Positions 10,711 through 36,353 of a DNA stretch of 64,000 nucleotides are shown in pieces. Below the pieces are notes generated by a model. That model was not told where the DNA came from and did not search any database. It was given only the letters and a program-made list of their open reading frames with translations. This DNA is from Escherichia coli (GTDB lineage Bacteria > Pseudomonadota > Gammaproteobacteria > Enterobacterales > Enterobacteriaceae), in the NCBI RefSeq assembly GCF_013122565.1, contig NZ_CP053258.1, one strand, 5' to 3'. The position numbers and the translations under genes are program-made. The first letter of the stretch is position 1. Every line of letters starts with the position of its first letter.

Positions 10711-12789
10711 TTAAATCAATGCCGATTTATCAATTCCAAGCCGCTTCATCCGTGACAGCAGGGTCGTGCGTTTCAGCCCCAGACGTTGCGCAGCGCCTTT
10801 AGGCCCGGCAACCACGCCATTAGTTTCTTTCAGCACGCGCACAATCAACTGATATTCATCTTCGCCCTCCTGAGCGACAACCGTTGCGGCAGGCGGCGTT
10901 TCAGGTTCCGGTAAAGCAATATCTGGCAATGACAGCTGCAGCACGTTACCGCGTGTTAGCAATACCGCGCGCTCAATGACGTTTTCCAGTTCGCGTACGT
11001 TACCCGGCCACTCCATGTTGCTCAAGGTGCGCAGCGTCTCGGCAGGAATGCTGTCGATATTGCGCCCCAGACGACGGGCAATTTTGAAGGTAAAGGCTTT
11101 CGCCAGCAGAGGAATATCTTCCGGACGCTCGCGTAGTGGCGGCAGGTGAATCGGGAATACGTTCAGGCGGTAATAGAGATCGCTACGGAACTCACGGTCG
11201 GCGACCATTTTTTTCAGATCGCGGTTAGTCGCGGCGATTAGACGCACGTCCGTCTGAATGATTTTGTTGCTGCCGAGACGTTCAAACTCCTGTTCCTGTA
11301 ATACACGCAGCAACTTCGGCTGTAACTCCAGTGGCATATCGCCCACTTCGTCGAGGAACAGGGAGCTTTTATCCGCCAGTTCAAAACGACCAATGCGCTG
11401 GGCGCTGGCACCGGTAAAAGCTCCGCGTTCATGACCAAACAGATCGCTTTCCAGCAATCCGGCAGGCATTGCCGCGCAGTTCATTTTGACCATGCGGCGA
11501 GTATTACGTCCACTGAGATTATGGATAGCGCGGGCAATCAGCTCTTTACCCGTGCCAGTTTCACCGAGGATCAGCACGGTACTGTCACTTTGCGCCACCA
11601 TTTCAACTTGTTTAAGCACGCTGTACATGGCTTCGCTGCGGCCAATAATCTCGCCAAATTCACTATCAACATTGTTGAGCTGCTCGGTCAGGGCGAGGTT
11701 TTCATCAACCAGCCGTTCTTTCAGACGATGGATTTCCTGATAGGCGAGGGCGTTATCGACAGCGATTGCCACACGTTCGGCAATCTGGCGCAGTAAATTC
11801 AGATTGGTAGTGGTAAATACTTTCTCTTCGCATTGCGCCAGTTTCAGCACGCCCAGCATGGTGTCGCCAGACATCAGCGGTAACAGGCACAAGGTTTGAA
11901 TCTGGTTGCCCCAGGTGTCGAACAACATACGTTCATAGGGGGCTAAATCGTCCCGCTCGTGGAGATTGATCAGCAGCATCTCTTTACTTTTGAACACGCG
12001 TTCGGTGAGGGTTCCGGCTTCATCGACTTCACTCTGTTCGTGGGCGGGATGCTGTTTATCAAGATAGTGAGTGGAGTAGATGTTGAGTTTGTTTTTACGG
12101 TGGCTGCGTAAGACGATACTGATATCGTCAATATCGAAATAGTAATGGATTTCTTTGGCGACTTCGCTGACCAGTTCGTCCATATCCAGGCGGGAAAGCA
12201 CCGCGTTGGTGATGGCGACCAGGATGCGGAAGTTATCGCGTTCCCGGCATAACAACTCATAGTCAACATTGTTAACGACGCGACTCTGGATTTGTTCGGT
12301 GACGACAGAAACGATCTGCGTAAATGTTTGCAGACGATTGAACTCTTTTTCGCTCCAGGGGCGATCGTCATAACGAATAAATTCACAGCCACCAAAAATA
12401 TGCCCTTCTGCCGCCAGTGGCATCAGGCAATAGTGACCAAATTTTGGGTATAGCCCACCTGCGGCCAGCTGCGGCCAGGTTTCACAAAATTCTTCGTAAC
12501 TGCAATGCAGCGTATCAGGGCGCGACAAAATGCTGCGTACCGGACCGTGTGCCAGAACAGTTTCGTCTTCATATTTAATGGGGGTGTCTTTTTCACGCGA
12601 CGCGTAATAAGACGCACGTTGAGTCTGCGCTTGCCACAACACGATAGCCGCGTTGTCGGCGAGCGCAGAACGCTTTACCAGTTGCGAAAGAGCCTCACAC
12701 AGCGAGGCCAGATCGGGCTGCTGCAATAGTGTCCGAGTGATGTCGAACAACCCTTGCTGTCCGAGATCACTCATCGGTGTATATGACAT
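10711..12789 (-). CDS. fhlA: Formate hydrogenlyase transcriptional activator FhlA (sigma-54 enhancer-binding protein); start at MSYTPMSDLG
   Basis: GAF plus AAA+ sigma-54 activator domain ([14 protein letters not shown]) plus C-terminal HTH; ORF track begins 12 codons upstream. Confidence 0.93.
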   Translation of the reverse strand: MSYTPMSDLGQQGLFDITRTLLQQPDLASLCEALSQLVKRSALADNAAIVLWQAQTQRASYYASREKDTPIKYEDETVLAHGPVRSILSRPDTLHCSYEEFCETWPQLAAGGLYPKFGHYCLMPLAAEGHIFGGCEFIRYDDRPWSEKEFNRLQTFTQIVSVVTEQIQSRVVNNVDYELLCRERDNFRILVAITNAVLSRLDMDELVSEVAKEIHYYFDIDDISIVLRSHRKNKLNIYSTHYLDKQHPAHEQSEVDEAGTLTERVFKSKEMLLINLHERDDLAPYERMLFDTWGNQIQTLCLLPLMSGDTMLGVLKLAQCEEKVFTTTNLNLLRQIAERVAIAVDNALAYQEIHRLKERLVDENLALTEQLNNVDSEFGEIIGRSEAMYSVLKQVEMVAQSDSTVLILGETGTGKELIARAIHNLSGRNTRRMVKMNCAAMPAGLLESDLFGHERGAFTGASAQRIGRFELADKSSLFLDEVGDMPLELQPKLLRVLQEQEFERLGSNKIIQTDVRLIAATNRDLKKMVADREFRSDLYYRLNVFPIHLPPLRERPEDIPLLAKAFTFKIARRLGRNIDSIPAETLRTLSNMEWPGNVRELENVIERAVLLTRGNVLQLSLPDIALPEPETPPAATVVAQEGEDEYQLIVRVLKETNGVVAGPKGAAQRLGLKRTTLLSRMKRLGIDKSALI

Positions 12790-15263: not shown

Positions 15264-16126
15264 CGCTGTGTCTCCAGCCAGTTCAGCCACTGGTCCATCC
15301 CTTCGCCGCTGGTGGCGGAAATAAGGATGATTTCAATTTCTGGATTGACTTCGCGGGCGCAGGCGATGCACTTCTCAACGTCAAAGTTGAGATACGGCAA
15401 AAGGTCAACTTTGTTGAGCAGCATCAGCGAGGCGGCGGCAAACATATGCGGATATTTCAGCGGTTTGTCTTCACCTTCGGTAACGGAAAGCACCGCTACT
15501 TTGTGTTTTTCACCGAGATCGAAGCTGGCCGGGCATACGAGGTTGCCAACGTTTTCGATAAACAGAATACCGTTATCGTCCAGTGGCAGACGCGGTGCGG
15601 CGTCGGCAATCATCTGTGCGTCAAGATGGCAGCCTTTACCGGTGTTCACCTGAATCGCTGGTGTACCGGTAGCGCGAATGCGTGCGGCATCGTTCACGGT
15701 TTGCTGGTCGCCTTCAATAACTGCGCACGGAACGCTGTCTTTCAGGCGCATTAAGGTTTCCGTCAGCAGGGTGGTTTTACCGGAACCAGGGCTGGAAACC
15801 AGGTTGAGCACCAGTTGCTTGCGGGCAGCAAAGCGCGCGCGGTTGCGTTCAGCCAGACGGTTATTTTTGTCCAGCACGTCAATTTCGACTTCCAGCATCC
15901 GACGCTGGCTCATGCCCGGCGCGTGAGTGCCCGCTTCGCCATGACCGTAATGCAGGTCGCCTTCTTCAGTCTGGCTGGGGGTAAATTCAGGCGCTTTAAT
16001 ACCGGTGATTTTCATCTTCGGGCGTGCCGCCGGGGCAAATGGCGCGCTACGAAACGCGGAATGAGGGTTATGTTCATCACCCTCGATATACAGGTTGCCT
16101 TCACCGCAACCGCATGTTGTACACAT
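15254..16126 (-). CDS. hypB: Hydrogenase nickel-incorporation GTPase HypB
   Basis: 290-aa ORF with His-rich N-terminus and GTPase P-loop (GSGKTT). Confidence 0.93.
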
Positions 16127-16129
16127 CGC

Positions 16130-16480
16130 TCACTCCTGGTCTATTTCTATCCGCCGAATCTGTAAACCGTCGTCTGCCACAATCTGTAGCATGTCACCAT
16201 GACACTGTGGACAGCGGCGGACGCGCTGGGTCAGTAGCGTCACATACTGTTGGCATGTTTCACACCAGCATTCGGCCTCTTGTTCTTCGAGGTGCAGTTT
16301 ACAACCTTCCGCCACGCTGCCGCGGCAAACCAGATCAAAACAAAAGGCAAGAGAGCTGGTTTCGACACAAGAAAATGCGCCAATTTTGAGCCAGACCCCA
16401 GTTACGCGTTTTGCGCCGTGTTTTGCGGCCTGCTGTTCGATCAATTCCAGTGCCCGTTGGCAGAGGGTTATTTCGTGCAT
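16130..16480 (-). CDS. hypA: Hydrogenase nickel-insertion protein HypA (start MHEITLCQ)
   Basis: 116-aa ORF with zinc-finger CxxC pairs; first gene of the hyp operon. Confidence 0.9.
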   Translation of the reverse strand: MHEITLCQRALELIEQQAAKHGAKRVTGVWLKIGAFSCVETSSLAFCFDLVCRGSVAEGCKLHLEEQEAECWCETCQQYVTLLTQRVRRCPQCHGDMLQIVADDGLQIRRIEIDQE

Positions 16481-16511
16481 ATCGCCTCCCATTAACTATT
16501 GCCAGCTACAA

Positions 16512-16526
16512 GCAATAATTGTGCCA
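16512..16526 (-). promoter_or_regulatory. Sigma-54 promoter for the hyp operon (TGGCAC-N5-TTGC on the minus strand)
   Basis: Plus-strand GCAATAATTGTGCCA is the reverse complement of TGGCACAATTATTGC; FhlA-dependent context. Confidence 0.6.
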
Positions 16527-16639
16527 GTGTTGATTATCCCTGCGGTGAATAATGTCGATGATGTCGAAATGACACGTCGACACGGCGACGAAATTCATCT
16601 TTAGCTTAAAAATCTCTTTAATAACAATAAATTGAAAGT

Positions 16640-16654
16640 TGGCACAAAAAATGC
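16640..16654 (+). promoter_or_regulatory. Sigma-54 promoter for the hyc operon (TGGCACAAAAAATGC; GG-N10-GC)
   Basis: -24/-12 elements read in sequence about 40 bp upstream of hycA. Confidence 0.6.
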
Positions 16655-16691
16655 TTAAAGCAGGCATCTCTGTTAAACGGGTAACCTGACA

Positions 16692-17153
16692 ATGACTATT
16701 TGGGAAATAAGCGAGAAAGCCGATTACATCGCACAGCGGCATCGTCGCCTACAGGACCAGTGGCACATCTACTGCAATTCGCTGGTTCAGGGGATCACGT
16801 TATCGAAAGCGCGCCTGCATCACGCCATGAGCTGCGCGCCGGACAAAGAACTCTGTTTCGTCCTTTTTGAACATTTTCGTATTTACGTCACCCTGGCGGA
16901 TGGCTTTAACAGCCACACCATCGAGTATTACGTCGAAACAAAAGATGGCGAAGACAAACAGCGGATTGCGCAGGCGCAACTGAGCATTGACGGCATGATT
17001 GATGGCAAGGTCAACATCCGCGATCGCGAACAGGTTCTGGAACACTATCTCGAAAAAATCGCTGGCGTTTACGACAGCTTATACACCGCTATTGAAAACA
17101 ATGTGCCGGTGAATTTAAGCCAACTGGTAAAGGGACAAAGCCCGGCAGCATGA
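16692..17153 (+). CDS. hycA: Formate hydrogenlyase regulatory protein HycA
   Basis: 153-aa ORF; first gene of the hyc operon divergent from hypA. Confidence 0.9.
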   Translation: MTIWEISEKADYIAQRHRRLQDQWHIYCNSLVQGITLSKARLHHAMSCAPDKELCFVLFEHFRIYVTLADGFNSHTIEYYVETKDGEDKQRIAQAQLSIDGMIDGKVNIRDREQVLEHYLEKIAGVYDSLYTAIENNVPVNLSQLVKGQSPAA

Positions 17154-17277
17154 GCTGAGGCTTTGCCCGTTTTGCAGGCGTTACGCCTGTTTGGGGATGG
17201 GCGTGTCGATGAGTGTCGAAAATGACATTTCATCAGCATGTTTTCGTCAAAAATGACAATCACCTGAGGAATGCCTG

Positions 17278-17889
17278 GTGAATCGTTTTGTAATTGCTGA
17301 CTCCACGCTCTGTATCGGCTGCCACACTTGTGAGGCCGCCTGTTCAGAGACGCATCGCCAGCACGGCCTGCAATCAATGCCGCGCCTGAGAGTGATGCTA
17401 AATGAAAAAGAATCTGCGCCGCAGCTCTGTCACCACTGTGAAGATGCACCCTGCGCAGTGGTCTGCCCGGTTAACGCCATCACCCGCGTTGATGGGGCCG
17501 TGCAGTTGAATGAAAGTCTGTGCGTAAGCTGCAAACTGTGCGGCATCGCCTGCCCGTTTGGCGCAATCGAATTTTCCGGCAGCCGTCCGCTGGATATTCC
17601 GGCAAACGCCAATACCCCAAAAGCGCCACCGGCACCGCCTGCTCCGGCGCGTGTCAGCACATTGCTTGACTGGGTGCCAGGTATTCGCGCGATCGCCGTC
17701 AAATGTGACCTTTGTAGCTTTGATGAACAAGGTCCGGCCTGCGTGCGGATGTGCCCGACCAAAGCCCTGCATCTGGTGGATAACACCGATATCGCCCGCG
17801 TCAGCAAACGTAAGCGTGAGCTGACCTTTAACACGGACTTTGGCGATCTCACCTTGTTTCAGCAGGCTCAAAGTGGAGAGGCTAAATGA
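17278..17889 (+). CDS. hycB: Formate hydrogenlyase subunit 2, 4Fe-4S ferredoxin HycB
   Basis: 203-aa ORF with multiple CxxCxxCxxxCP motifs. Confidence 0.93.
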   Translation: MNRFVIADSTLCIGCHTCEAACSETHRQHGLQSMPRLRVMLNEKESAPQLCHHCEDAPCAVVCPVNAITRVDGAVQLNESLCVSCKLCGIACPFGAIEFSGSRPLDIPANANTPKAPPAPPAPARVSTLLDWVPGIRAIAVKCDLCSFDEQGPACVRMCPTKALHLVDNTDIARVSKRKRELTFNTDFGDLTLFQQAQSGEAK

Positions 17890-19712
17890 GCGCAATTTCC
17901 CTGATCAATAGCGGCGTGGCGTGGTTTGTCGCCGCCGCTGTTCTGGCATTTCTCTTTTCTTTTCAAAAAGCGCTAAGTGGCTGGATAGCCGGAATTGGCG
18001 GCGCGGTTGGTAGTCTGTATACGGCAGCCGCGGGCTTCATTGTACTGACTGGCGCGGTTGGCGTGAGCGGTGCGCTGTCGCTGGTAAGCTACGATGTGCA
18101 AATCTCTCCGCTTAACGCGATTTGGCTGATTACGCTCGGTCTGTGCGGTCTGTTTGTCAGCCTCTACAACATTGACTGGCATCGCCACGCGCAGGTGAAG
18201 TGCAACGGCTTGCAGATCAATATGTTGATGGCTGCCGCCGTCTGCGCAGTCATCGCCAGCAACCTCGGCATGTTCGTGGTAATGGCCGAAGTCATGGCCT
18301 TGTGCGCGGTGTTCCTCACCAACAACAGCAAAGAGGGCAAACTGTGGTTTGCGCTGGGGCGTCTTGGCACTCTGCTGCTGGCGATTGCTTGCTGGCTGCT
18401 GTGGCAGCGTTATGGCACGCTGGATCTGCGCCTGCTGGATATGCGTATGCAACAGCTGCCGCTCGGTTCCGATATCTGGCTGCTCGGTGTGATTGGCTTT
18501 GGCCTGCTGGCCGGGATTATTCCGCTGCACGGCTGGGTGCCGCAGGCACATGCTAACGCCTCTGCGCCAGCTGCCGCGTTGTTTTCTACGGTAGTCATGA
18601 AAATTGGCCTGCTGGGCATTTTAACCCTGTCGCTGCTGGGCGGTAATGCACCGCTGTGGTGGGGGATCGCGCTGCTGGTGCTCGGCATGATCACCGCGTT
18701 CGTCGGTGGTCTGTATGCGTTGATGGAACACAACATCCAGCGCCTGCTGGCTTACCACACCCTGGAAAATATCGGCATTATCCTGCTGGGGCTGGGCGCT
18801 GGCGTAACGGGTATCGCGCTCGAACAACCGGCGCTGATTGCTCTTGGCCTGGTCGGTGGTCTGTACCATCTGCTTAACCATAGCCTGTTCAAAAGCGTAC
18901 TTTTCCTCGGGGCGGGGAGCGTCTGGTTCCGTACCGGTCATCGCGATATCGAAAAACTCGGTGGTATTGGCAAGAAAATGCCGGTTATCTCCATCGCCAT
19001 GTTAGTCGGGCTGATGGCAATGGCTGCGCTGCCGCCGCTGAACGGGTTTGCCGGGGAATGGGTTATCTATCAATCCTTCTTCAAGCTGAGCAATAGTGGC
19101 GCGTTTGTTGCCCGTCTGCTGGGGCCGCTGCTCGCAGTGGGGCTGGCAATTACCGGTGCGCTGGCGGTGATGTGTATGGCGAAAGTCTATGGCGTCACGT
19201 TCCTCGGCGCGCCGCGTACCAAAGAAGCCGAAAACGCCACCTGTGCGCCGCTCCTGATGAGCGTAAGCGTAGTGGCACTGGCGATTTGCTGCGTAATTGG
19301 CGGTGTTGCTGCGCCGTGGCTGCTGCCGATGCTCTCTGCTGCTGTACCTCTGCCGCTGGAGCCTGCTAACACCACCGTTTCTCAACCAATGATCACGTTG
19401 CTGCTGATTGCCTGCCCGCTGCTGCCATTCATCATTATGGCGATTTGCAAAGGCGATCGTTTGCCGTCGCGTTCCCGCGGCGCGGCCTGGGTGTGCGGCT
19501 ACGACCATGAAAAATCAATGGTAATTACCGCCCACGGTTTTGCCATGCCGGTGAAACAGGCGTTTGCGCCGGTGCTGAAACTGCGCAAATGGCTGAATCC
19601 GGTGTCGCTGGTGCCGGGCTGGCAGTGCGAGGGGAGTGCGTTGCTGTTCCGCCGGATGGCGCTGGTTGAACTGGCGGTACTGGTGGTGATTATTGTTTCA
19701 CGAGGAGCCTGA
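17886..19712 (+). CDS. hycC: Formate hydrogenlyase membrane subunit 3 HycC (NuoL/M/N-like antiporter subunit)
   Basis: 608-aa polytopic membrane ORF; operon position. Confidence 0.93.
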   Translation: MSAISLINSGVAWFVAAAVLAFLFSFQKALSGWIAGIGGAVGSLYTAAAGFIVLTGAVGVSGALSLVSYDVQISPLNAIWLITLGLCGLFVSLYNIDWHRHAQVKCNGLQINMLMAAAVCAVIASNLGMFVVMAEVMALCAVFLTNNSKEGKLWFALGRLGTLLLAIACWLLWQRYGTLDLRLLDMRMQQLPLGSDIWLLGVIGFGLLAGIIPLHGWVPQAHANASAPAAALFSTVVMKIGLLGILTLSLLGGNAPLWWGIALLVLGMITAFVGGLYALMEHNIQRLLAYHTLENIGIILLGLGAGVTGIALEQPALIALGLVGGLYHLLNHSLFKSVLFLGAGSVWFRTGHRDIEKLGGIGKKMPVISIAMLVGLMAMAALPPLNGFAGEWVIYQSFFKLSNSGAFVARLLGPLLAVGLAITGALAVMCMAKVYGVTFLGAPRTKEAENATCAPLLMSVSVVALAICCVIGGVAAPWLLPMLSAAVPLPLEPANTTVSQPMITLLLIACPLLPFIIMAICKGDRLPSRSRGAAWVCGYDHEKSMVITAHGFAMPVKQAFAPVLKLRKWLNPVSLVPGWQCEGSALLFRRMALVELAVLVVIIVSRGA

Positions 19713-27862: not shown

Positions 27863-28873
27863 ATGACGACGATGCTGGAAGTGGCGAAGCGCGCCGGGGT
27901 TTCAAAAGCGACCGTTTCCCGCGTGCTTTCAGGTAATGGCTACGTCAGCCAGGAGACTAAAGATCGCGTGTTTCAGGCGGTAGAAGAGAGCGGTTACCGC
28001 CCAAATTTGCTGGCGCGCAATCTGTCGGCGAAGAGTACTCAGACGCTGGGGCTGGTAGTGACCAACACGCTTTACCACGGCATTTATTTTAGTGAATTAC
28101 TGTTTCATGCCGCGCGAATGGCGGAAGAGAAAGGGCGGCAGTTGCTATTGGCAGATGGTAAACACAGCGCCGAAGAAGAGCGCCAGGCGATTCAGTATCT
28201 GCTGGATTTGCGCTGCGACGCCATTATGATTTACCCGCGTTTTTTAAGCGTGGATGAGATCGATGACATCATTGACGCGCACAGTCAGCCGATAATGGTG
28301 CTTAATCGCCGCCTGCGCAAAAACAGCAGCCATAGCGTCTGGTGCGATCATAAACAGACCAGCTTTAATGCCGTGGCAGAGTTGATAAACGCCGGACATC
28401 AGGAGATTGCTTTCCTTACCGGCTCGATGGATTCCCCCACCAGCATTGAACGTCTTGCCGGGTATAAAGACGCGCTGGCGCAGCATGGTATTGCGCTCAA
28501 TGAAAAACTTATCGCTAACGGTAAATGGACGCCCGTCAGCGGGGCCGAAGGGGTAGAAATGTTGCTCGAACGTGGGGCTAAATTTAGCGCGTTAGTTGCC
28601 AGTAACGACGATATGGCGATAGGTGCGATGAAAGCGTTACACGAGCGCGGCGTAGCGGTGCCAGAGCAGGTGTCAGTTATCGGATTCGATGATATCGCAA
28701 TTGCCCCCTACACCGTTCCGGCGCTCTCCAGCGTAAAAATTCCGGTGACTGAGATGATTCAGGAAATTATTGGACGGCTGATTTTTATGCTCGATGGGGG
28801 CGCTTACACACCGCCGAAAACCTTCAGCGGAAAACTGATCCGCCGCGACTCACTCATTGCTCTTTCGCGATAA
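27863..28873 (+). CDS. ascG: LacI/GalR-family repressor AscG (start MTTMLEVAK)
   Basis: N-terminal HTH (LEVAKRAGVSKATVSRVLSG) and periplasmic-binding-like domain; divergent from ascFB. Confidence 0.9.
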   Translation: MTTMLEVAKRAGVSKATVSRVLSGNGYVSQETKDRVFQAVEESGYRPNLLARNLSAKSTQTLGLVVTNTLYHGIYFSELLFHAARMAEEKGRQLLLADGKHSAEEERQAIQYLLDLRCDAIMIYPRFLSVDEIDDIIDAHSQPIMVLNRRLRKNSSHSVWCDHKQTSFNAVAELINAGHQEIAFLTGSMDSPTSIERLAGYKDALAQHGIALNEKLIANGKWTPVSGAEGVEMLLERGAKFSALVASNDDMAIGAMKALHERGVAVPEQVSVIGFDDIAIAPYTVPALSSVKIPVTEMIQEIIGRLIFMLDGGAYTPPKTFSGKLIRRDSLIALSR

Positions 28874-28885
28874 ACATTGTCATCA

Positions 28886-28920
28886 CATGTCATCGTCACT
28901 AGTGTCGATGACATCTTTTT
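28886..28920 (+). terminator. Intrinsic terminator after ascG (ATGTCATCG..CGATGACAT hairpin plus T6)
   Basis: Inverted repeat followed by CTTTTTT read in sequence. Confidence 0.65.
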
Positions 28921-29021
28921 TCCTGCATTACAGAAATTAATTTCCTTAAATAACAGTGAATTAAAAACTGGCATGATTTGTGAATGTATCGGCGCATTAA
29001 CTGTCATTGCTGGAGAATTTG

Positions 29022-33216: not shown

Positions 33217-34652
33217 TTTGCCTCCGATGCCAGTTCGTCAAAGACGTCTTTGCCGAGGGAGCATTCCGGGCAGAGGAAGTTATCCGGGACTTCACTCCAC
33301 GGCGTTCCTGGCGCAACGTCCTGCATTGGCTCGCCTTTTGCCGGATCGTAAATCCACTGGCAGACGCTGCACTGCATCCGTGGGCCGAGGTCAGCCGTCG
33401 TGGTGGCAGAGGTTTCTTCTTTAACTACCGTATTCACCGTGCTCTGCGGCAGAGGCGCGAGCGCCCACTGACGGGCGATTTCGCGACCGTGTTCACGGCA
33501 TAACTCCAGAGCGTCCTGGTCTGGTCGCCATTTCGCTTTCAGGCTAAGCGACATTTCGAAACCCGCATCCTGCAGGCGCGTGGAAAGACGATCCACCGCA
33601 CCGCCGCTCCAGCCGTGAGAGCCGAAAGCACTGGCGCGTTTGTTACGGAAGCGTAATCCGGTCATCTCCTCCACCAGCCCGGCGATTTTCGGCATCATCA
33701 CGTTATTCATCGTCGAAGTGCCGACCAGCACGCCTTTTGAGCGGAAGACATTGGTCAGGATTTCGTTTTTATCGCTTCGGGCGACGTTGAAAATTTTCAC
33801 CGCCACGCGTGGGTCGGTTTCCGCAATCCCTTGGGCGATAGCGTCAGCCATCATGCGGGTGTTATTCGACATGGTGTCGTAGAAAATGGTGATTCTGTCT
33901 TCCTGATAATCAGCCGCCCATTTCAGGTACAGCTCGACAATTTGCGTCGGGTTATCGCGCCAGACCACGCCGTGAGAGGTCGCTATCATATCGACTGGTA
34001 AGTTAAAGCCCAGGATCTCGGTAATTTTCGGCGTTACCAGGCGGCTGAACGGCGTAAGGATATTGGCGTAGTAACGCTGGCACTGCTCAAAAAGCTCCGT
34101 CTGATCCACTTCATCGTTGAACAGATGCTCGTCGCAGTAGTGCTGACCGAAAGCATCGTTACTGAACAGCACCGCGTCGCCTGTCAGGTAAGTCATCATG
34201 CTGTCCGGCCAGTGCAGCATTGGTGTTTCGACAAAAATGAGCTGTTTGCCGTTGCCGATATCCAGCGTGTCGCCAGTTTTCACCACATTAAAATTCCACT
34301 CCGGATGATGGTGATGACCATTTATCGAGTCGATAGCGTTGGCAGTACAGTAGATCGGCGTATCGGGAATTTGTGCCATCAGTTCGGTCAGCGCCCCGGC
34401 GTGGTCCTCTTCTGCATGGTTAATCACGATGTAATCGATATCCGCCAGATCGATTTCATTACGCAGGTTCTGCACAAATTCGCGGCTGAATTTATGGTCG
34501 ACGGTGTCGATCAGCACGTTTTTTTCTTCGCGGATGAGGTAGCTGTTGTAGCTGCTGCCGCGCAGCGTTTTATATTCCGTGCCGTGAAAATCACGCACTT
34601 CCCAGTCACGTTGACCCACCCAATGAATGTTATTTTTCACCACAATAGACAT
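33213..34652 (-). CDS. norV: Anaerobic nitric oxide reductase flavorubredoxin NorV
   Basis: 479-aa ORF with metallo-beta-lactamase-like, flavodoxin and C-terminal rubredoxin (CxxC...CPxC) regions. Confidence 0.93.
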
Positions 34653-34698
34653 AGCAACCTCAATTTATTCAGCGTGTTCTAAAAAGATATCTTGCTAA

Positions 34699-34714
34699 TT
34701 GCAGATTGCGTGCC
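34699..34714 (-). promoter_or_regulatory. Sigma-54 promoter of norVW (TGGCAC-N5-CTGCA on the minus strand)
   Basis: Plus-strand TGCAGATTGCGTGCCA is the reverse complement of TGGCACGCAATCTGCA; correct position upstream of norV. Confidence 0.65.
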
Positions 34715-34770
34715 ATTTTTTTATCTGATTGTTTTTACTCTATAAATAAAATTATGCTCATTAATGAGTA

Positions 34771-34826
34771 GTCAAAATGACTATCAATCAAATGGTCGAT
34801 ATGACAATATCTATAGTCAAATTGAC
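34771..34826. promoter_or_regulatory. Three NorR binding sites (GT-N7-AC): GTCAAAATGAC, GTCGATATGAC, GTCAAATTGAC
   Basis: Three 11-bp inverted repeats read directly at 34771-34781, 34795-34805, 34816-34826 in the norR-norV intergenic region. Confidence 0.8.
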
Positions 34827-34838
34827 AGTGAGGCAAAG

Positions 34839-36353
34839 ATGAGTTTTTCCGTTGATGTGCTGGCGAATATCGCCATCGAATTGCAGCGTGGGATTGGTCA
34901 TCAGGATCGTTTTCAGCGCCTGATCACCACGCTGCGTCAGGTGCTGGAGTGCGATGCGTCTGCGTTGCTACGTTACGACTCGCGGCAGTTTATTCCGCTT
35001 GCCATCGACGGGCTGGCGAAGGATGTACTCGGTAGACGCTTTGCGCTGGAAGGTCATCCACGGCTGGAAGCGATTGCCCGCGCGGGTGATGTGGTGCGCT
35101 TTCCCGCAGACAGCGAATTGCCCGATCCCTATGACGGTTTGATTCCAGGGCAGGAGAGTCTGAAGGTTCACGCCTGCGTTGGTCTGCCGCTGTTTGCCGG
35201 GCAAAACCTGATCGGCGCATTGACGCTCGACGGAATGCAGCCCGATCAGTTCGATGTTTTCAGCGACGAAGAGTTACGCCTGATTGCCGCGCTGGCGGCG
35301 GGAGCGTTAAGCAATGCGTTGCTGATTGAGCAACTGGAAAGCCAGAATATGCTGCCGGGCGATGCCACGCCGTTTGAAGCGGTGAAACAGACGCAGATGA
35401 TCGGTCTGTCGCCAGGTATGACGCAATTGAAAAAAGAGATTGAGATTGTGGCGGCGTCCGATCTCAACGTCCTGATCAGCGGTGAGACGGGAACCGGTAA
35501 GGAGCTGGTGGCGAAAGCGATTCATGAAGCCTCGCCACGGGCGGTGAATCCGCTGGTCTATCTCAACTGTGCTGCACTGCCGGAAAGTGTGGCGGAAAGT
35601 GAGTTGTTCGGGCATGTGAAAGGAGCGTTTACTGGCGCTATCAGTAATCGCAGCGGGAAGTTTGAAATGGCGGATAACGGCACGCTGTTTCTGGATGAGA
35701 TCGGCGAGTTGTCGTTGGCATTGCAGGCCAAGCTGCTGAGGGTGTTGCAGTATGGCGATATTCAGCGCGTTGGCGATGACCGTAGTTTGCGGGTCGATGT
35801 GCGCGTGCTGGCGGCGACTAACCGCGACTTACGCGAAGAGGTGCTGGCAGGGCGATTCCGCGCCGATTTGTTTCATCGCCTGAGCGTGTTCCCACTTTCG
35901 GTGCCGCCGCTGCGTGAGCGGGGCGATGATGTCATTCTGCTGGCGGGGTATTTCTGCGAGCAGTGTCGTTTGCGGCTGGGGCTCTCCCGCGTGGTATTAA
36001 GTGCCGGGGCGCGAAATTTACTGCAAAACTACAGTTTTCCGGGAAACGTGCGCGAACTGGAACATGCTATTCATCGGGCGGTAGTACTGTCGAGAGCCAC
36101 CCGCAGCGGCGATGAAGTGATTCTTGAGGCGCAACATTTTGCTTTTCCTGAGGTGACGTTGCCGCCGCCAGAAGTGGCGGCGGTGCCCGTTGTTAAGCAA
36201 AACCTGCGTGAAGCGACAGAAGCGTTCCAGCGTGAAACCATTCGCCAGGCACTGGCACAAAATCATCACAACTGGGCTGCCTGCGCGCGGATGCTGGAAA
36301 CTGACGTCGCCAACCTGCATCGGCTGGCGAAACGTCTGGGATTGAAGGATTAA
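34839..36353 (+). CDS. norR: NO-responsive sigma-54-dependent activator NorR (GAF-AAA+-HTH); start [10 protein letters not shown]
   Basis: GAF N-terminus, AAA+ core ([14 protein letters not shown]), C-terminal HTH; start adjusted to downstream ATG so the operators stay intergenic. Confidence 0.92.

Follow-up and report, generated by a model that had tools for sequence, protein, structure and literature searches.

Which elements open the two operons that run away from each other across the hypA–hycA intergenic region of Escherichia coli, and what do the two promoters share? The question is raised here by 64,000 nucleotides of E. coli chromosomal DNA (hereafter the window), lying in the orientation opposite to that of K-12. 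Within it hypA (16130..16480, minus strand; 116 aa, start as in the K-12 annotation, full-length match to NCBIfam HypA with 241.8 bits), the first gene of hypABCDE-fhlA, diverges from hycA (16692..17153, plus strand; 153 aa, NCBIfam HycA equivalog, 301 bits), the first gene of hycABCDEFGHI. The divergent, NtrA (sigma-54)-dependent promoters hycAp and hypAp of E. coli K-12 were reportedly first described by Lutz, Bohm, Beier and Bock in 1990 (Mol Microbiol 4:13; pmid 2181234), and these hyp and hyc promoters, known since that year, are experimentally confirmed. The reading that we favour, with a probability of about 97%, is that the two motifs found in this region are the divergent sigma-54 (-24/-12) promoters of hypABCDE-fhlA and hycABCDEFGHI, and that the formate-sensing activator FhlA, bound to an enhancer between them, would open both by looping. 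The motifs, their statistics, their conservation in orthologous regions, the enhancer core with its phasing and the presence of fhlA come from the present analysis; sigma-54 occupancy, the dependence on rpoN, FhlA and formate, and the status of confirmed promoters come from the literature.

Bases 16000-17200 (hypB-hypA-hycA) are matched in 5,425 of 5,426 complete E. coli genomes, with identity up to 99.8%. The intergenic region occupies 16481-16691 and its 211 bp equal the length of its MG1655 counterpart, with which it shares 209 of 211 bases. The first-pass annotation had set its left boundary at 16493, apparently by assuming an upstream in-frame ATG as the start of hypA; the annotated start is at 16480, the region accordingly begins at 16481, and the longer version of the reading frame from 16492 falls within the 5'UTR. 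A Shine-Dalgarno sequence GGAGG can be read at 16485..16489 on the minus strand, ahead of hypA. Both single-nucleotide differences from MG1655 lie outside the -24/-12 elements: a G at 16634, which is A in K-12 and occupies the last (R) base of the IHF-like element discussed below, and an A at 16662, which is T in K-12 and precedes the predicted hyc start by 4 nt. The hycAp/hypAp pair of K-12 is otherwise identical in its 17-nt promoters, their orientation, the 113-bp gap and the flanking genes.

The two motifs proposed earlier were found at the coordinates and on the strands given for them, the minus strand carrying TGGCACAATTATTGC (16512-16526) and the plus strand TGGCACAAAAAATGC (16640-16654), and their back-to-back layout was borne out as well, since they face in opposite directions across the 113 bp that separate the -24 elements. 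The full hyp promoter, CTGGCACAATTATTGCT (16511..16527, minus strand), carries a -24 TGGCAC at 16521-16526 and a -12 TTGC at 16512-16515; its GG (16524-16525) and GC (16512-16513) are exactly 10 nt apart in a TGGCAC-N5-TTGCW-like setting, the arrangement of the sigma-54 class. The same holds for the hyc promoter, TTGGCACAAAAAATGCT (16639..16655, plus strand), with -24 TGGCAC at 16640-16645, -12 TGC at 16652-16654 and the invariant dinucleotides at 16641-16642 and 16653-16654, again exactly 10 nt apart. By the rule of Bonocora et al., which places the start 19 nt downstream of the motif centre, transcription is predicted to begin at 16500 (minus strand), 20 nt upstream of the hypA ATG, and at 16666 (plus strand), 26 nt upstream of the hycA ATG. 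The published distances of 20 and 26 are thereby reproduced in the window, with both predicted starts upstream of their genes and both promoters oriented towards them, as in the sigma-54 class. The two promoters also form a 27-nt inverted repeat (16500-16526 and 16640-16666; 78% complementary, with one more matching base in K-12) that spans the -24 element through the predicted +1 (…TGCTT.{2}AGC.GGCA); its part downstream of -12 is not conserved outside Escherichia.

Occupancy of both promoters by sigma-54 has been documented by ChIP-seq, in which hycA is site OS27, TTGGCACAAAAAATGCT, with a fold-above-threshold (FAT) value of 91, and hypA is site OS28, CTGGCACAATTATTGCT, with a FAT of 201 (Bonocora et al. 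2015, PMC4591121, Table 1). No other intergenic sense site in that table scores as high as OS28 by FAT or by PSSM, and both sites are marked 'C', that is, experimentally confirmed in EcoCyc (PMC4591121). Genomic SELEX with the RpoN holoenzyme recovers the hycA/hypA spacer (Shimada et al. 2021). In Salmonella, sigma-54 binding is accompanied by sigma-54-dependent expression on microarrays, 26-fold for hycABCDEFGHI and 5.6-fold for hypABCDE (Samuels et al. 2013, PMC3844500, which cites Lutz et al.). The Salmonella Typhimurium hycA/hypA region resembles the present one in its divergent layout and in the 113-bp gap between -24 elements (PMC3844500), and differs in the spacer and -24 bases of its promoters, TGGCATGGAAAATGCTTA and TGGCATAAATATTGCTTT.

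How stable is this arrangement in evolution? To keep the choice of loci independent of promoter motifs, they were collected by a degenerate pattern for the first eight hypA codons (MHEITLCQ), one genome per species (n=120), and 87 of the 120 loci had a divergent hycA homologue, with 31-99% amino-acid identity. Every one of these 87 intergenic regions contains a hypA-directed sigma-54 site (best scores 15.8-21.3) and a hycA-directed one (best scores 8.3-18.8), as against scores of about 0-3 for shuffled intergenic regions. The GG and GC are invariant in 87/87, with spacer and flanking bases variable, which is the pattern of conservation of the sigma-54 class. In Enterobacteriaceae the -12 C of the hyp promoter precedes the ATG by 29-36 nt and that of the hyc promoter by 36-39 nt, except for 43-45 nt at hyc in the Silvania/Leclercia group. 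Across the loci the gaps between the promoters cluster at 91, 101-102, 113-115 and 125-126 bp. A -12 element that reads GTGC, not TTGC, keeps the score of the hyc site down to 8-12 in many genera. The hyp site is retained at several Yersinia, Serratia and Arsenophonus loci in which hycA was not captured. The sequences upstream of hypA in Proteus and outside Enterobacterales provide a negative contrast, scoring only -0.5 to 10.5. About 48 nt upstream of hypA, Proteus spp. (L048, L108, L111, L112, L118) have CTGATACTATAGTTGCT at the position of the hyp promoter, with the -12 TTGC retained and the GG replaced by GA (PSSM 6.0), suggesting a sigma-54 promoter that has decayed or been re-purposed.

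Another possibility for the nature of these sites is that they bind sigma-54 silently, or that the operons are transcribed from other promoters. We consider this very improbable. Silent binding is suggested by the finding that most sigma-54 sites appear transcriptionally inactive under the conditions of Bonocora et al. (PMC4591121), and is opposed by the confirmed status of both promoters in EcoCyc, by the sigma-54 dependence of hyc and hyp in the Salmonella microarray (PMC3844500) and by the presence of both sites in all 87 orthologous regions, each at a constant spacing to its ATG. As to other promoters, a scan with the sigma-70 consensus returned one weak match at 16492-16519 on the plus strand, which is at chance level (1 vs 1.4 expected), and sigma-70 promoter and terminator scans of the region gave chance-level matches only. 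There is likewise no sigma-70 ChIP peak at hyc, which is labelled as a sigma-N site (Myers et al. 2013). In favour of other promoters, the same study reports an FNR ChIP-seq summit just inside hypA (2,848,688 in U00096.2), which maps to about 16461, some 19 bp into the gene. Within hypA no match to the FNR consensus was found with up to 2 mismatches, and the internal FNR-dependent hyp promoter of the literature could not be located by sequence. The summit may relate to that promoter. In the window as a whole, the FNR/CRP-like palindrome TTGAT-N4-ATCAA occurs 43 times with up to 2 mismatches, compared with 28.2 expected (sd 5.3), a count that none of 100 shuffles reaches.

The strength of the two sites relative to the rest of the window was assessed with a PSSM built from 38 intergenic sigma-54 ChIP-seq sites (Bonocora et al. 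2015), the four sites within the window being left out. Among about 128,000 window positions the hyp promoter ranks first (21.7) and the hyc promoter second (17.6), both well above the sequence background; the training sites have a median of 16.2. The third rank is taken by 34700-34716 on the minus strand (17.5) and the fourth by 16760-16776 on the plus strand, inside hycA (16.4), with the fifth falling to 12.4. Windows simulated with a first-order Markov model contain 0.45 hits at or above 16.4 on average, and never more than 2. For the exact pattern TGGCAC-N6-TGC the window has 4 occurrences where 1.14 are expected, a count reached by only 1 of 100 shuffles; apart from hyp and hyc, its matches are those of ranks three and four (34701-34715, minus strand, and 16761-16775, plus strand). 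A looser 16-mer consensus with one mismatch shows no enrichment in the window (4 vs 3.64 expected), and the argument therefore rests on the strength and placement of the sites rather than on the bare consensus. Two hits of at least 16.4 within one 211-bp region, each facing its gene and with a predicted transcription start 20-26 nt ahead of it, are far beyond chance. The least probable of the alternatives, that a short consensus has turned up twice by chance in an A/T-rich intergenic region, could draw on the unenriched looser 16-mer and on the Markov-random windows that sometimes reach a PSSM maximum of about 16-22, yet it is refuted by conservation and ChIP data, with both sites kept in 87/87 regions as their spacers diverge, correctly oriented within 211 bp, at a score with at most 2 hits in any simulated window and attained by three literature-confirmed sigma-54 promoters among the four top hits.

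The rank-three hit is the known norV sigma-54 promoter, ATGGCACGCAATCTGCA, which begins with C instead of A in K-12, and it serves as an internal positive control. It lies in the norV–norR intergenic region (34652-34839), 49 nt ahead of the norV ATG, and is itself preceded by three NorR-type GT-N7-AC boxes (~34816-34826, ~34795-34805 and ~34771-34781); the adjoining norR equivalog diverges from 34839. The norR-norV system is alike in that activator sites precede a -24/-12 promoter between divergent genes, and differs in that only norV is listed as a sigma-54 promoter and that the activator is NorR and the signal nitric oxide, not formate. A further site inside hycC, GTGGCGCGTTTGTTGCC (19096-19112, plus strand; PSSM 11.8), is the one that Bonocora et al. 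list as IS31 among their intragenic sigma-54 ChIP-seq sites.

The earlier proposal of control by FhlA and formate, as part of the formate hydrogenlyase regulon, is supported by the flanking genes, by fhlA in the cluster and by the ChIP-seq, EcoCyc, Salmonella and other published data. The gene for the cognate enhancer-binding protein is present: fhlA, coding for the sigma-54 activator (10711..12789, minus strand), follows hypE directly as the last gene of the hyp-fhlA cluster and matches the NCBIfam equivalog NF011958 over ORF residues 13-704 with 1547 bits against a cutoff of 830. Where, then, would FhlA bind? A 16-bp palindromic FhlA consensus, CATTTCGTACGAAATG, is quoted second-hand in PMC4987338. 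In this form it has no match with up to 5 mismatches in the intergenic region, in which the only FhlA half-sites are CGAAATG (16565) and CGAAATT (16589). Given the lack of a usable match to the consensus, the enhancer was delimited by conservation instead.

A footprint alignment of 58 distinct intergenic regions with HycA identity of at least 60% revealed six conserved blocks, namely the hypA Shine-Dalgarno sequence (at least 95% conserved over the 58 regions), the hyp promoter, a central core, an A/T-rich tract, the hyc promoter and the hycA leader. The central core, GTGAATAATGTCGATGATGTCGAAATGACACGTCGACA (16546..16582, best conserved at 16560-16578), holds TGTCGA at 16553 and 16562 and an inverted TCGACA at 16577, together with two short tandem repeats. 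Its position and conservation, the parallel at hydN described below and the literature suggest that it is the FhlA upstream activating sequence. It is followed by a segment that is confined to particular lineages, CGGCGACGAAATTCA (16583..16597), which carries a second CGAAAT-type half-site and appears as an indel between gap classes. This extension is present in the Escherichia-type 113-bp class and absent from the main Citrobacter group and the other lineages of the 101-102-bp class, whose gap is shorter by about 12 nt because the segment is missing. At the other end of the alignment, the hycA 5' leader, TCTCTGTTAAACGGGTAACCTGAC (16667..16690, plus strand), is strongly conserved across genera around the core TTAA(A/C)CGG(G/A)TA and has no obvious strong Shine-Dalgarno sequence. 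An Rfam scan of 16000-17400 returned nothing credible and no family for this leader.

The A/T-rich tract (~16598-16639) ends in an ATCAAT-N-TTAAAAA element adjoining the hyc -24 box. The element, TAACAATAAATTG (16622..16634, plus strand), has one mismatch to the IHF consensus WATCAANNNNTTR, and matches of this quality occur in the window at chance frequency. Among the 87 orthologous regions, 23 have a perfect match to WATCAANNNNTTR starting 19-21 nt before the hyc GG, where 0.53 would be expected, and of the two comparisons only this positional one across species was informative. The element is a candidate binding site for IHF. The first-pass annotation had been right about the divergent sigma-54 promoters and had made no mention of the shared enhancer and the IHF-like element between them.

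The central core is a conserved enhancer-like block of the kind looked for at FhlA-dependent promoters, some 70-100 bp upstream of the starts, and a related core of the same spacing class (62 bp) is found in the window at hydN (hydN-hypF), whose sigma-54 promoter CTGGCATGATTTGTGAA (28968-28984, plus strand; ChIP-seq site OS26) belongs to the same FhlA regulon. The sequence upstream (28870-28984) contains TGTCAT repeats and a core TGTCGATGACA at 28903-28913, the ATGACA of which starts 62 bp upstream of the GG, and then AATAACAGTGAATTAAAAAC abutting TGGCA. Searches with the 18-nt core TGTCGAAATGACACGTCG (up to 3 mismatches) and with the looser TGWCGNNATGACA (up to 1 mismatch) missed the hydN enhancer, and its likeness was noticed only by reading the sequence. 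The layout is that of hyc, with a TGTCG..TGACA core and an AATAACA...AATTAAAAAC tract abutting the -24 box TGGCA, although hydN has a single promoter rather than a divergent pair and a weaker -12 (GTGAA).

The core is not spaced alike relative to the two promoters. Measured from its ATGACA in about 30 genus-level lineages, the hyc -24 GG has its first G at only 50, 61-64 or 71-74 bp, whereas the hyp GG lies 42-46 or 54-58 bp away in the majority of lineages and 36, 71 or 133-186 bp away in others. For the hyc distances the Rayleigh statistic peaks at 0.86 at a period of 10.5-11 bp, with lineages treated without phylogenetic correction, and none of 5,000 uniform null sets reaches 0.86; the independent indel events behind the phasing are probably only four to six. 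FhlA has been reported to bind one face of the DNA, and the phasing of core to hyc agrees with such binding and with bend-assisted looping at hyc. It is possible, at somewhat less than even odds, that one core is shared asymmetrically, the core and the IHF-like site being locked to hyc in whole helical turns, the distance to hyp being free over 36-186 bp and the second half of the upstream activating sequence (16583-16597) being specific to certain lineages. If this is true, activation of hyc would depend on helix face and DNA bending, and activation of hyp would not.

A separate possibility, less likely than such asymmetric sharing, concerns the rank-four hit, GTGGCACATCTACTGCA (16760-16776), a strong sigma-54-like motif that K-12 shares unchanged and that reads in the sense direction within hycA, 121 bp beyond the hyc promoter. 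A third promoter at this place would express hycB-I without the anti-activator HycA, which we regard as quite improbable. The motif has no separate ChIP-seq site in Bonocora et al. and arises from the codons W-H-I-Y-C-N; 13 lineages encode this Cys by TGT and so lose the GC of the -12, and those with another residue in its place lack the motif. Most likely the W-H-x-Y-C-N codons produce it as a by-product of the coding sequence.

What could be the course of events at the hyp and hyc promoters? The account with the best support is that of the textbooks: the sigma-54 RNA polymerase would sit at each of them as a closed complex, and formate-sensing FhlA, encoded at the end of the hyp cluster, would bind the enhancer between them and open each complex by ATP hydrolysis through DNA looping, probably with the assistance of the IHF-like bend site adjoining the -24 box in the case of hyc. 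Fermentative accumulation of formate would in this way induce the structural operon of hydrogenase-3 together with the maturation operon that carries fhlA.

The confirmation of these promoters adds no new biology, and shows that genuine sigma-54 promoters are recognisable from raw sequence. The phasing of the enhancer to hyc and not to hyp, the lineage-specific second half of the enhancer and the positionally fixed IHF-like site are modest additions, to be regarded as refinements rather than discoveries. The hyp and hyc operons are a classic case of divergent, enhancer-dependent sigma-54 transcription, and their promoters are the switch that couples the accumulation of formate to the production of hydrogen in fermenting enterobacteria.
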